NCBI GenBank assembly: GCA_017475525.1
Contig: JAFVFH010000034.1
Location: forward strand, 4,375-68,374
Reading direction: 5' to 3'
DNA from: Alphaproteobacteria bacterium
Lineage (GTDB): Bacteria; Pseudomonadota; Alphaproteobacteria; RF32; CAG-239
DNA length: 64,000 nucleotides
Position numbers and translations under genes: made by a program. Within the stretch, counting starts at the first letter, position 1; each line of letters opens with the position of its first letter. A model generated the notes under the pieces. The model was not told the DNA's origin and did not search any database. It was given only the letters and a program-made list of their open reading frames with translations. Below, piece after piece: positions 31,322-57,281 of this stretch.

Positions 31322-31348
31322 AAGCCTCTCAATCGAGAGGCTTTTTTT
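31322..31348. terminator. bidirectional terminator between ompA-like (+) and pilin-like gene (-)
   Basis: agcctctc-aatc-gagaggct + T7. Confidence 0.6.
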
Positions 31349-31961
31349 ATTTCCACTTGATAAAAACACGGCACTCTGAATAGTCACACTGTTCGCAAAC
31401 ATCTGTCATATCATTGATTGTCATTTGTGACAGACATGGTTCATTACTTCCACCACAAAAAGAATCTCCGTAGAAAAAGCTACTTGCTTTTTGATCGTCG
31501 CCTCTTGCGGCGCTTTCACCATTATCAGAATAAGTATAATATAAATCTCTCGAATTTTCTCGTGCAATAATAAAAAGTTGCCTACAGAGCATTTTTCCTC
31601 CATCCGTTGACGCAAAATGATATGTGATTCCACCTTCATGAGATTTAGAGATATTAGGTTTAATTTTATTGTAAAACATATCTTGTAAAAAGGTTGAATC
31701 ATAATAAATAAATCCGTTCGGAATCATGTTCATGGCTTTAATTGTATCTGCATGGTAAGTTGTTTGTGTTGTATCATATTCAAGTTTTGGAAAAAGTGCC
31801 ATATAGTTTTGTAACAATTGGCTATGTGCATCTGTAAACTGATTTAATTTATGCTGAAACATCGCCTTTGAGTAACCTGCCAAAGCGCCGGCACTTAAAA
31901 CACCGATGATTGCTAAAACTCCCAGCATTTCAACCATACTCCTGCCACTGTCTTTATTCAT
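31347..31961 (-). CDS. type-IV-pilin-like protein, paralog 1 (class-III leader, Cys-rich C-terminus)
   Basis: MNKDSG|RSMVEMLGVLAIIGVLSAGALAGY fits the prepilin G|xxxxE + hydrophobic helix motif; C-terminal C..C.....C cluster shared with 3 paralogs; AAAGGAA RBS. Confidence 0.7.
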   Translation of the reverse strand: MNKDSGRSMVEMLGVLAIIGVLSAGALAGYSKAMFQHKLNQFTDAHSQLLQNYMALFPKLEYDTTQTTYHADTIKAMNMIPNGFIYYDSTFLQDMFYNKIKPNISKSHEGGITYHFASTDGGKMLCRQLFIIARENSRDLYYTYSDNGESAARGDDQKASSFFYGDSFCGGSNEPCLSQMTINDMTDVCEQCDYSECRVFIKWK

Positions 31962-32180
31962 TTGTCGTTCCTTTCGCTCTATTACATAAAAAAATCCGCT
32001 TTGGAAAATCAAAACGGGGAGCTAGTAAACTGTCCGAGAACAGACTCTTTTATTCGTCATAAAATACGCTTATTTCAAGAACTCCCCTTCATTGAGGAGT
32101 ATTCTCGGATATACCGTGTTTACTAGACACCGCAGCAACTCACTGCACTTTTTATCATAAGCCTTAAGATAAAAAAATCA
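31962..32180 (-). promoter_or_regulatory. conserved structured 5' leader (copy 5 of 10)
   Basis: mRNA-sense GGUGU..ACACGG, AUACUCC-UCAAUGAA-GGGGAGU, AAUAAGCG, CGAAUAA, CUGUUC-UCG-GACAG, ccgtttt-gattttcc-aaagcgg + U7. Confidence 0.5.
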
Positions 32181-32184
32181 AGCA

Positions 32185-54906: not shown

Positions 54907-54964
54907 TTTATATTTCCTTTCTTAAAATTAATTTGTTAAAAGTTTTAAGCCTTATGGCAAAGTC

Positions 54965-56341
54965 TTAAAACCGTTTGTTGTTCATTGGTCCAAAAGGAAA
55001 CCCTCCTATTGAACCGCGTTTTAATATTTGGGAAAACCCTTTGATAGAACCGAATTTCCCCATTTGTTTGACCATAGAAGCCATTTGCTCATAAGATTTT
55101 AAGAGCTTATTGACATCTGTTACCTCAACCCCCGAACCGCTTGCAATACGTTTTTTACGGCTTGCTTTGATAATATCGGGGTTAGATCTTTCGGCCTTTG
55201 TCATTGAAAGAATAATTGCCTCTTGTTTTTTCAAGATTTCATCACCGTTTATTTGCTCTAACTGTGCTTTATATTTTGCAATTCCCGGAATCATTGATAA
55301 AATACTGCCCATTGAGCCGAGCTTTTTCATCTGTCTCATTTGCGACAAAAGGTCGTTCAAATCAAACTTCCCTTTCATCATTTCGAGCATATCTTTTTCA
55401 GCCTGTGCACGGTCAACCGTTTCCATCGCCTTTTCAACAAGGCTCACAACGTCGCCCTGTCCTAAAATTCGGCTTGCAATGCGGTCAGCATGAAAAGCCT
55501 CAATTTCATCGAGCTTTTCACCCGTACCGAGATATTTAATCGGCACCCCGGCAACCATTTTCATTGAAAGTGCGGCACCTGCTCTTGACGAGCCGTCGAT
55601 ACGCGTTAAAACCAAACCCGTGATACCGAGTTTTTCATTAAACACTTTAGCAACATTGCATGCCTCTTGGCCGATTAAAGCGTCAACAACAAGCAAAATC
55701 TCCGTCGGATTTGCAAGCTTTTTAACATCACTTACTTCATTCATCAAAGTTTCATCAATTTGCAAACGACCGGCCGTATCGAGAATAAGCATGTCATACA
55801 CACCGGTTTTGGCGGCTGTTAATGCGCGCTTTGTAATTTCGAGCGGAGACTCTCCCTTGACGATTTCAAGCGAATCGACACCGATTTGCTCAGATAACTG
55901 TTTGAGTTGCTCTTGTGCAGCCGGACGATAAACATCAAGTGATGCAAGCAAAACCTTTTTGCTTTTCTTAAGTTTGTTTGCAATTTTTGCGGCTGTTGTT
56001 GTTTTGCCGGAGCCTTGCAAACCCACCATCATCACAACCACCGGTGCGGGTGCGTTCAAATTGAGCTCTGAGCCCTCATTGCCCAAAAGTTTGACAAGCT
56101 CATCGTGCACAATTTTAACAACCATTTGCCCCGGCTGAATTGAGCGCACAACCTTTTCGCCAAGTGCTTGTTCTTTCACATGAGCAATAAAGTCTTTGAC
56201 GACGGAGAGCGAAACATCTGCCTCCAAAAGCGCGACTCTGATTTCGCGCATAGCACTGTCAATATCTGCCTCAGAGAGCACGCCCCTTGAGGTGATTTTA
56301 TTAAAAACAGCGCCTAATTTATCGGTCAATGTTTCAAACAA
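54965..56341 (-). CDS. ffh: signal recognition particle protein Ffh (SRP54)
   Basis: NG domain GLQGSGKTTTAAK, DTAGR, M-domain Met-rich C-terminus. Confidence 0.9.
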   Translation of the reverse strand: MFETLTDKLGAVFNKITSRGVLSEADIDSAMREIRVALLEADVSLSVVKDFIAHVKEQALGEKVVRSIQPGQMVVKIVHDELVKLLGNEGSELNLNAPAPVVVMMVGLQGSGKTTTAAKIANKLKKSKKVLLASLDVYRPAAQEQLKQLSEQIGVDSLEIVKGESPLEITKRALTAAKTGVYDMLILDTAGRLQIDETLMNEVSDVKKLANPTEILLVVDALIGQEACNVAKVFNEKLGITGLVLTRIDGSSRAGAALSMKMVAGVPIKYLGTGEKLDEIEAFHADRIASRILGQGDVVSLVEKAMETVDRAQAEKDMLEMMKGKFDLNDLLSQMRQMKKLGSMGSILSMIPGIAKYKAQLEQINGDEILKKQEAIILSMTKAERSNPDIIKASRKKRIASGSGVEVTDVNKLLKSYEQMASMVKQMGKFGSIKGFSQILKRGSIGGFPFGPMNNKRF

Positions 56342-56507
56342 AAGTCAAATTCCTTCTTTTTTAACCCGTTTTATATAAAAACTTCGCGCCAGTGTGCGAA
56401 CCCTCGCTGACTGACGGCACGCCGTGGCGTGTTATATCAAACGAATTTTTTTCAAGTTAAATTCGAGGTATTTATAGCTGATTTTTTTTTTAAGTCAAGA
56501 AATTTTT

Positions 56508-57281
56508 TTAGTATGGCAAAAAATCAAAAACCAAAATGCATGCTCTGCCCTCATTACATGTCCGGCACATTTCTGCCGCATCTGTTGCTGTCATATCTTT
56601 GATACAGATTTTAGAGTCATTGCAAACTTTATCACCATAATATACTTCTGAATTACCTTGATTTTCACCGTTTTTGTCAGCCTGTCGCCACACGCGAAGA
56701 AGGTATAAAGCATCGCTGTTAGGTTTGCCGAATCCCATGATTAAATCCGAACAAAATTCTTTTTTTCCATTGAAATAATAATCAATGCTAATGCGTGAAT
56801 ATCTTGCAAAAAATAAAATTCTGTTATTAAAAAAATCAAAAAGATAATCTCCGCCAGTTTTCCAATTTTGTGGCAATAAGTTAAATTGTTGAACATATTG
56901 CGACAACACAAATCCTTCATTTCCGTTACCCTGCTTCCCAAATTCATCTTTATATTCCGACAAACCCTCTGCCATTGTTTCCAAATCAGAAATGAGTTGG
57001 TTTGTTTTGTGCCTTTTCATCGCATTATTAAAGCCTGCTAATGCACCGGCGCTTAAAACACCAATCACAGCCAAAACCCCAAGCATCTCAACCATGCTTC
57101 TTCCTTTTAAATCCTCCCCCTTAGCGCCTTTGGCGCGGTTAAGAGGGGGGAGGTACGGAGGGGGTGGCAATATTTCAACCATCGACCGCCCATTATCTTT
57201 TTGAAGCCTCACCCTTGAGCGGAGAGGTTTGGAGAGGGTGACAACATTTTTTCCAAATCTCTTCATATTTTTATTATTCAT
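56508..57281 (-). CDS. type-IV-pilin-like protein, paralog 4, leader region disrupted by a palindromic insertion
   Basis: ...QKDNG|RSMVEIL-PPPPYLPPLNRAKGAKGEDLKG|RSMVEMLGVLAVIGVLSAGALAGF: duplicated G|RSMVE junction flanking about 25 inserted aa; C-terminal Cys cluster YYGDKVCNDSKICIKDMTATDAAEMCRTCNEGRAC; functional start uncertain (alternative ATG at MVEML with AAAGGAAG RBS). Confidence 0.55.
   Translation of the reverse strand: MNNKNMKRFGKNVVTLSKPLRSRVRLQKDNGRSMVEILPPPPYLPPLNRAKGAKGEDLKGRSMVEMLGVLAVIGVLSAGALAGFNNAMKRHKTNQLISDLETMAEGLSEYKDEFGKQGNGNEGFVLSQYVQQFNLLPQNWKTGGDYLFDFFNNRILFFARYSRISIDYYFNGKKEFCSDLIMGFGKPNSDALYLLRVWRQADKNGENQGNSEVYYGDKVCNDSKICIKDMTATDAAEMCRTCNEGRACILVFDFLPY
57095..57175. 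repeat. about 70-bp palindromic insertion inside pilin-4 leader-peptide coding region
   Basis: cctccccc-ttagcgcctttggcgcggttaaga-ggggggagg (nested palindrome gcgcctttggcgc); flanked by duplicated atggttga(a/g)at. Confidence 0.55.

Follow-up and report, generated by a model that had tools for sequence, protein, structure and literature searches.

Pilin-like paralogues of a very large, undescribed protein family in uncultured gut Alphaproteobacteria, and a candidate regulatory RNA leader upstream of them

The stretch of DNA described here (64 kb of contig JAFVFH010000034.1, assembly GCA_017475525.1, henceforth the window) derives from an uncultured Alphaproteobacteria bacterium and carries four paralogous genes for pilin-like proteins, along with repeated copies of a structured RNA leader found upstream of these and of other genes. 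A survey of its domains, combining Pfam scans of 30 larger open reading frames (ORFs) with the precomputed annotation of 28–49 kb, returned housekeeping genes, two resistance-nodulation-division (RND) efflux operons, four BspA-type leucine-rich repeat (LRR) genes, two SLOG genes, a C39-like peptidase and phage-tail-like genes. The pilin-like genes are the following.

31347..31961, minus strand: pilin-like paralogue 1, 204 amino acids (ORF, motif scan, alignment A1)
38260..38874, plus strand: pilin-like paralogue 2, 204 amino acids, identical to P0001 (ORF, NCBI match, AlphaFold models)
43265..43894, plus strand: pilin-like paralogue 3, 209 amino acids (ORF, alignment A1)
56508..57281, minus strand: pilin-like paralogue 4, 257 amino acids, identical to P0005 (ORF, DNA reading)

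A preliminary description of this DNA had singled out these four genes for a common N-terminus and six conserved Cys residues, and both points were borne out. The N-terminal motif GRSMVEMLGVLAIIGVLS was found at exactly four sites, those of genes 1 to 4, when the window was scanned in six frames with seven mismatches tolerated. Pairwise identity among the four paralogues is 32–36% overall, and their alignment (A1) contains an invariant block, GRSMVEMLGVLA.IGVLS.GAL.G, as well as the conserved Cys; in all four the N-terminus is nearly invariant, with Gly followed by RSMVEMLGVLA(I/V)IGVLS. In the 25 codons at the N-terminus, 10–17 synonymous as against 0–4 non-synonymous differences separate one paralogue from another, which implies that the block is maintained by selection on the peptide; the N-terminal peptide itself is thus under strong purifying selection. 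Recent duplication, gene conversion or chance as the source of this conservation are excluded by the many synonymous differences. Exactly six Cys are the norm of the family, being present in 107 of the 149 distinct relatives, one of them mid-domain and five within the C-terminal module.

The four genes are members of a very large, undescribed family of proteins of about 200 amino acids in uncultured gut Alphaproteobacteria. A profile search against 1.84 billion representatives recovered 5,851 clusters (50% identity) at E ≤1e-3 and 4,381 at E ≤1e-10, nearly all matches spanning the full length, and at least 561 stretches encode relatives in species-representative genomes. The records concerned are mostly titled as uncultured Alphaproteobacteria metagenome-assembled genomes (MAGs), with a few bins bearing other taxon names, and their gut sources are human (Hadza, UHGG), ruminant and equine. 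In about 290 kb fetched from a single MAG, CAKQRZ, at least 42 different copies are present. For gene 2 the product matches, at 100% identity, the NCBI entry 'MAG: type II secretion system protein [Alphaproteobacteria bacterium]'. Other database matches are unnamed or carry generic PilA/PulG names, none with a Pfam domain; the family has no Pfam or NCBIfam entry, and its names in public annotation (NCBI, JGI) are limited to 'type II secretion system protein', PulG and PilA. Neither the protein family nor the leader RNA turned up in literature searches. The genes are monocistronic and scattered, each standing alone beside housekeeping genes that include rplKAJL, rpoBC, nusA-infB, nusG and ffh. 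Their single, scattered placement, already reported for the window, was confirmed there and extends to about 150 relatives in 1.4–1.5 Mb of flanking DNA.

What makes these proteins pilin-like is first of all their N-terminus. Among 40 family members (alignment A3) the Gly at -1 is nearly invariant (at least 90%) and the Glu at +5 (E12) is invariant, while the leader peptides are short, basic and Gly-ended, of the form M(K/Y)(F/K)(K/N)..(N/K)G. The top family matches, all of them below threshold, are N_methyl, GspG/GspH and PilA. When a profile of the 40 members was compared with all PDB sequences, the top matches were mostly type IV pilins, all weak (E 0.1–0.9), among them a fimbrial protein, TcpA (profile positions 11–135), geopilins and PilA. 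An AlphaFold2 model of the gene 2 product, computed from the family alignment (predicted local distance difference test, pLDDT, 88.5), has a single 47-residue N-terminal helix (residues 10–56) and, after it, a beta-sheet head that includes another long helix; a model of the head only (residues 30–204) reached a pLDDT of 93 and a predicted template-modelling score of 0.88. The C-terminal 'hydrophobic tail' of the preliminary description corresponds in these models to the last beta-strand of the predicted head and is no anchor.

Many members carry N-terminal extensions of 20–115 amino acids built of translated repeat DNA. They occur only upstream of the G-R-S codons, or duplicate them, and are in frame behind a normal ribosome-binding site (RBS) and start. 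In three loci (L043, L075, L040) the RNA leader, the RBS and a normal start codon all lie upstream of the insertion, so the extension must be translated. Gene 4 is an example from the window: its N-terminus reads MNNKNMKRF...QKDNGRSMVEI-(22 amino acids)-GRSMVEMLGV, i.e. a 65-residue leader peptide with in-frame insertions and a duplicated GRSMVE(I), and the orthologue P0004 is without the insertions. That arbitrary sequence is tolerated only before Gly-1 would fit a cleaved leader peptide; the cytoplasmic tail of an uncleaved anchor would be tolerant too.

Small palindromic repeats have entered repeatedly, in frame, at or before G-R-S and with target duplications, in window positions 57105-57420 (minus strand) and in P0009, P0013, P0014, P0016, P0028, P0040, L040, L043 and L075; gene 4 has a second copy of 'gagaacaggtatgaataa' as well as of GRSMVE. 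The position of the repeats could reflect site preference or a filtering effect of selection.

Pilus machinery was sought in the window and beyond. Neither T2SSE, T2SSF, Peptidase_A24 or Secretin domains nor gsp genes near the paralogues were found among the window ORFs scanned, in agreement with the earlier statement that the 64 kb hold no such machinery. Regular expressions for the PilD GxGDxK motif and for a secretin motif had no match in 1.38 Mb of window and flanks, and one for the T2SSE-type Walker A motif retrieved a single ATPase from the same DNA. Searches with tblastn, using approximate Pseudomonas aeruginosa PilD and PilC sequences as queries, gave nothing below E = 1 in about 1.5 Mb, the two best PilD-like stretches being unrelated proteins. 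The genes of the family do not cluster with machinery of any kind; this much is established. The sole ATPase (L073:18280-19233, minus strand, 317 amino acids) is a diverged PilT/ComGA/GspE-like member of the T2SSE family, and its homologues (P0121–P0240; L088, L091) measure 317–468 amino acids and are 60–94% identical across gut Alphaproteobacteria MAGs. It adjoins a FadL/Toluene_X outer-membrane protein in two contexts and an HD_5 protein in one. The window also encodes a stand-alone C39-like cysteine peptidase (270 amino acids, 48892-49704, minus strand) next to an LRR gene; it was considered as the processing enzyme and rejected, the leader peptides being without a double-glycine motif.

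Alignment of the DNA upstream of genes 1 to 3 brought out a conserved element that ends, directly ahead of the RBS, in a hairpin and a U-run. The preliminary description had missed this shared leader, which links the pilin-like genes to those of LRR surface proteins. A covariance model (R1), built from eight copies, gave 50 matches at E ≤0.01 in 1.29 Mb, 45 of which are followed, 2–38 nt further on and on the same strand, by an ORF that starts with ATG. The window has ten copies in total (at genes 1 to 4, the four BspA-type LRR genes and the two SLOG genes), listed here with the associated promoter-like and terminator-like sites.

31962..32148, minus strand: leader of gene 1, with helices Ha, Hb and P1–P4 and pseudoknot (R1 match 31988-32105, 93 bits; 5' limit inferred from the promoter)
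32017-31996, minus strand: terminator-like site in the gene 1 leader (terminator scan)
32154..32181, minus strand: sigma-70-like promoter of gene 1, TTGATT-16-TATGAT (consensus scan, pattern match only)
38078..38259, plus strand: leader of gene 2 (R1 match 38125-38247, 95 bits; 5' limit inferred)
38215-38242, plus strand: terminator-like site in the gene 2 leader (U-run 12 nt before the ATG)
43051..43264, plus strand: leader of gene 3 with promoter-like site at 43051-43079 (R1 match 43128-43244, 95 bits)
43215-43236, plus strand: terminator-like site in the gene 3 leader (terminator scan)
57417..57548, minus strand: degenerate leader and terminator upstream of gene 4 (weak R1 match 57435-57541, 15 bits, E 0.08)
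18926..19113, minus strand: leader before the BspA-type LRR gene 17853-18890 (R1 copy 18926-19047, 60 bits; LRR_5)
60304..60485, minus strand: leader before the LRR gene 59315-60280 (R1 copy 60304-60419, 55 bits; LRR_5)
2235..2422, minus strand: leader before the LRR gene 807-2222 (R1 copy 2235-2356, 52 bits; LRR_5)
48532..48725, minus strand: leader before the LRR gene 47233-48498 (R1 copy 48532-48659, 48 bits; LRR_5)
17108..17219, plus strand: leader before the SLOG-like gene 17244-17837 (R1, 42 bits)
25571..25698, plus strand: short leader variant lacking the P2/P3 arm, before the YpsA/SLOG gene 25721-26194 (R1, 25 bits, E 0.003; Pfam YpsA)

The degenerate copy at gene 4 is 74% identical to the leader at 25594-25714. 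Outside the window, in the loci fetched around the ATPase, the leader precedes an LRR gene, a gene of unknown function for 320 amino acids and a PMT_2 glycosyltransferase gene, and the same architecture, built from other helix sequences, is found upstream of relatives in other genomes.

The leader is about 185 nt long; the order of parts from 5' to 3' is a promoter-like site, hairpins Ha, Hb and sometimes Hc, a 5' hairpin P0, a helix P1 with two arms, and a terminator. Promoter-like sites were called about 190 nt upstream of genes 1 and 3, and for the LRR copies they were read by eye. P1 closes the junction of the two arms, one formed by P2, an internal loop and P3, the other by P4. The internal loop is two-fold symmetric (UGAAUAAG), with conserved strands UGAAAUAAG and CUGAAUAA (UGAAUAA/UGAAUAA). 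A pseudoknot of 6–8 bp joins the loop of Hb to the segment linking P4 with the 3' side of P1; its partners are UCUAGUAAAC/UUUACUAG in the leader of gene 1, UCAUGAAAC/UUUCAUG in that of gene 2, UUCAAAAGC/CUUUUGA in that of gene 3, and UUUCAAGAC/UCUUGAA in the LRR leader at 18926..19113, where the ATG lies 35 nt downstream. The leaders of genes 2 and 1 fold more stably than shuffled sequences (z-scores -6.05 and -3.03).

Covariation was tested on a structure-blind MAFFT alignment, with shuffled and slid partners as controls. The full structure pairs in 94.6% of cells, compared with 75.2% for shuffled and 30–44% for slid partners; compensatory changes are seen in 23 of 29 pairs, and the covariation score is 0.579 (control 0.232). 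The pseudoknot alone scores 0.541, versus 0.168 when shuffled, and comes in about 27 distinct matched variants. Ranked among 27 distinct variants, a leader's own pseudoknot partner came first in 23 of 49 leaders and within the top three in 35 of 49. A model-fitted alignment agrees with the structure-blind result. G-U pairs are frequent, and on the gene strand only, from which it follows that the structure is that of an RNA made from the gene's strand. Known riboswitch classes are excluded by Rfam searches: no Rfam 15 family reached its gathering threshold in the window except two tRNAs, and the gene 1 leader searched at E ≤10 gave just two chance-level matches. As judged from these sequence comparisons, the leader is a well-supported candidate for a new class of cis-regulatory RNA.

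As to how such an RNA might act, the leaders of genes 1 to 3 end in an intrinsic terminator (hairpin and U-run) 12–38 nt before the start codon. In gene 2 only 12 nt separate the U-run from the ATG, which rules out a promoter between terminator and start codon there, so that the coding region can be transcribed only by read-through of the terminator. We infer transcription attenuation from this arrangement. P0 competes for the 5' strand of P1. Of three sequence types, two have the two outer pairs of P1 overlapping the foot of the terminator stem, and in the remaining one they lie directly against it. Minimum-free-energy folds contain, as an alternative, a long-range helix between the Hb region and the 3' strand of P1. 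The complexity of the fold and the invariance of nucleotides in the loop argue for a specific effector, either a small ligand or a protein.

On balance we lean towards a joint reading in which the proteins are alternative, type IV pilin-like surface subunits whose expression is set by attenuation in the leader. Among known proteins, type IVb pilins would come nearest to the subunits in sequence; cleavage after Gly-1 would fall to a prepilin-type peptidase, and a dispersed type IV filament machine encoded elsewhere in the genome would assemble or display them. The only candidate part of such a machine so far is the orphan PilT/ComGA-like ATPase, which was met in related genomes only. The diversified heads would then make up a repertoire of alternative surfaces for adhesion or antigenic variation. 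A putative signal, sensed as a small ligand or through an RNA-binding protein, would set read-through of the leader terminator, and attenuation would co-regulate pilin-like, LRR and other envelope genes. The leader precedes pilin-like as well as other surface-protein genes, and so probably co-regulates them.

Several observations weigh against this proposal. On the protein side, at least 90% of members have Arg at +1 and some have Lys; in known type IV pilins the residue there is hydrophobic (Phe, Met or Leu) and N-methylated, and neither Arg nor Lys is known at this position from any characterised type IV pilin. The Pfam N_methyl model (PF07963), proposed as a check in the preliminary description, scores 14–19 bits, under its cut-off of 21.2, and TIGR02532 scores 10–12 bits, likewise under its cut-off of 16.3. 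The class-III prepilin signature claimed there thus holds for Gly-1, Glu+5 and the hydrophobic helix, and fails at +1 and in the scores of the hidden Markov models (HMMs). Since both the +1 residue and the curated HMM thresholds depart from pilins, the proteins are to be called pilin-like, not pilins. Structure prediction, suggested at the same time, divides similarly: a long helix and a beta-sheet head are predicted, and Foldseek matches the head to no pilin. Foldseek searches of PDB with the full and head-only models found no pilin or other solved fold, the best values (E 0.17–0.26, template-modelling score ≤0.28) belonging to chance-level matches of Cas7/Arp2/3 type. As modelled, the general pilin layout is present, and the head appears to be a fold absent from solved structures or one too diverged for Foldseek.

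The genomic context and the leader add further points to the same side. In the window and in the 1.4–1.5 Mb flanking about 150 relatives no peptidase, platform protein or secretin was found, a negative that says little about absence, as only an estimated 5–15% of any genome was sampled. The ATPase is always an orphan, with no T2SSF, A24 or secretin neighbours in three contig groups. The leader is present at only 39 of the 124 family members in the sampled loci. One species, MGYG-HGUT-00610, uses a different upstream region, TTGCAA-N17-TAAAAT, with no terminator (L003–L007, upstream of position 10001 and at about 18000–18300; L072), which means that the leader is not universal to the family. 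The switch proposed for the leader is itself hypothetical; between P1 and the terminator the overlap spans no more than about 2 nt, and in part of the sequences the two only adjoin. Given Arg+1, the unmatched head and the peptidase not found in the sampled DNA, we infer cleavage after Gly-1 followed by filament display with moderate confidence.

The same facts lend themselves to another reading, which we judge unlikely but worth keeping in view, namely that the N-terminus is an uncleaved signal anchor and the products are bitopic inner-membrane proteins with a periplasmic Cys-rich domain, pilin-like at the N-terminus only. Arg+1 would then be an ordinary positive-inside residue, cytoplasmic N-terminal extensions would be tolerable too, and neither a head unlike known pilins nor the lack of peptidase and assembly genes in the window or sampled flanks would call for explanation. 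A passive anchor, however, would not normally have an invariant Glu five residues after the Gly within its hydrophobic segment, nor would its first 35 or so residues stay almost invariant across thousands of diverged paralogues. The nearest sequence matches being mostly pilins, and a type IV filament-type ATPase being conserved in the same MAG group, also speak against it.

That the proteins are ordinary Sec substrates, freed by signal peptidase I (e.g. after S-K-A) as soluble Cys-rich periplasmic or secreted proteins, is quite improbable. They do have a basic n-region, a hydrophobic core and a small-x-small motif (SKA or NNA) about 25 residues past the Gly, but the N-terminus is their most conserved part, whereas signal peptides are normally the least conserved; moreover, the hydrophobic stretch is long and contains a Glu, the helix passes the putative cleavage site without a break, extending to residue 56, and the AM.K.K.N motif that flanks this site is conserved.

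Very improbable, too, is the earlier suggestion of minor pilins or pseudopilins, here taken as those of a single type II secretion system or type IV pilus. The prepilin-like N-terminus and the annotation names 'type II secretion system protein', PulG and PilA (NCBI, JGI) point that way. Minor pilins, however, occur in few copies and in operons with their machinery, a poor fit with dozens of diversified copies per genome (at least 42 in one case), monocistronic and scattered, and the equivalog scores are far too low (GspG 22 bits against a cut-off of 88.9, GspH 13–18 bits against 80, and PilA also far under).

Scarcely credible, finally, is that the leader is a dispersed DNA repeat (e.g. a miniature inverted-repeat transposable element (MITE) or an invertible promoter cassette) with no functional RNA: there are ten copies in 64 kb, the genome hosts active small repeats such as a 139-bp element present three times at 99% identity, and DNA inverted repeats can co-vary too, but the copies are about 70–75% identical and yet keep six helices through compensatory changes with strand-specific G-U pairs, their orientation and their distance to RBS and ATG are constant, they end in a canonical terminator, and four short nested helices with a loop-to-strand pseudoknot are unlike the anatomy of an inverton.

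The proposed reading, of pilin-like alternative subunits under leader attenuation, may be set beside several known systems. Like type IV and IVb pilins (TcpA, CofA, BfpA), the proteins have a Gly-ended leader peptide, Glu+5, a hydrophobic alpha1-N running into a long helix, C-terminal Cys and a head predicted to be built on a beta-sheet, with TcpA among the best PDB sequence matches; unlike them, they have Arg or Lys at +1, sub-threshold Pfam and TIGRFAM scores, no head fold match, six Cys, no operon with peptidase, ATPase or platform, and dozens of copies per genome. The DUF1559 proteins of Planctomycetes and the 'Verru_Chthon cassette' proteins of Verrucomicrobia are also paralogue-expanded pilin-like families of unknown role, and they share the prepilin-type N-terminus joined to a lineage-specific domain and the many scattered copies, with no filament known to have been demonstrated. 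They differ in head domain, phylum and habitat, and TIGR02596 gave a non-significant E of 0.21. In Neisseria pilE/pilS antigenic variation, many head variants are combined with a constant N-terminal region. The present family likewise has variable pilin-like heads on a constant N-terminus, but each of its copies is a full gene that has a separate start codon and, wherever a leader was seen, one of its own, and the synonymous differences in the constant region indicate that there is no homogenising gene conversion.

For the leader, the closest parallels are riboswitch-controlled pilin and adhesin genes, e.g. the cyclic di-GMP (c-di-GMP) riboswitches upstream of pilA1 in Clostridioides difficile. 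Both have a structured 5' leader with an intrinsic terminator and many copies per genome; the leader described here differs in having no Rfam match, four helices, a hairpin-loop pseudoknot and the symmetric UGAAUAAG loop. Specialised NusG paralogues such as UpxY (Bacteroides), LoaP and RfaH act by leader-dependent antitermination of surface-structure loci, and conserved leaders before many alternative surface genes of a gut bacterium are common to those systems and to the read-through control proposed here. Their leaders, however, have short recognition elements and not a pseudoknotted fold of 185 nt, and the genes annotated in the window include no nusG other than the housekeeping one next to secE. 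As a tentative possibility beyond the proposed reading, the leader might represent a new riboswitch class, in very many copies per genome, that switches a whole surface repertoire of pilin-like, BspA-LRR and other proteins, perhaps sensing a two-fold symmetric signalling nucleotide (an idea prompted by the symmetry of the UGAAUAA/UGAAUAA internal loop), with the proteins in or on a filament made by a dispersed, non-canonical type IV machine that accepts Arg+1.

Several other features of the window were noted in passing. The four BspA-type LRR_5 proteins, all encoded on the minus strand, have signal peptides and Cys-rich N-termini; two of them have Pro-rich PARP-like repeats, and the LRR gene at 59315-60280 contains an internal repeat with a 66-bp period (59662-59971). 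Just upstream of gene 3, two adjacent genes on the plus strand (41607-42428 and 42436-42996) encode secreted proteins of 273 and 186 amino acids with signal peptides, with no Pfam or NCBIfam match and no leader copy upstream. The copies of the 139-bp element, which looks like a recently active MITE, lie at 17451-17589 (in frame inside the SLOG-like gene 17244-17837), at 33569-33704 (5' end of an outer-membrane efflux gene) and at 43888-44029 (stop codon of gene 3). The two RND efflux operons, 12304-16581 (plus strand) and 33707-37945 (minus strand), are paralogous, with about 66–67% DNA identity; each consists of a membrane-fusion protein and an ACR_tran pump, with separate OEP genes at 26319-27671 and 32185-33810. 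At the window edge (61510-63991, minus strand) a 577-residue protein with tail-fibre-like repeats adjoins a phage tail-collar domain protein; the pair may be what is left of a prophage or tailocin.

The uncultured Alphaproteobacteria of the gut, which are common in humans and ruminants, have hardly been studied, and the protein family is among their largest gene expansions. Its size, together with a leader that ties it to a surface-protein regulon, makes it of larger interest than was first apparent. If the proteins are displayed subunits, they would be prime candidates for adhesion to host or particles and for immune evasion. The leader RNA already brings with it a regulon that takes in pilin-like, LRR, SLOG and glycosyltransferase genes, and the signal behind surface variation would be testable in vitro without culturing the organism.

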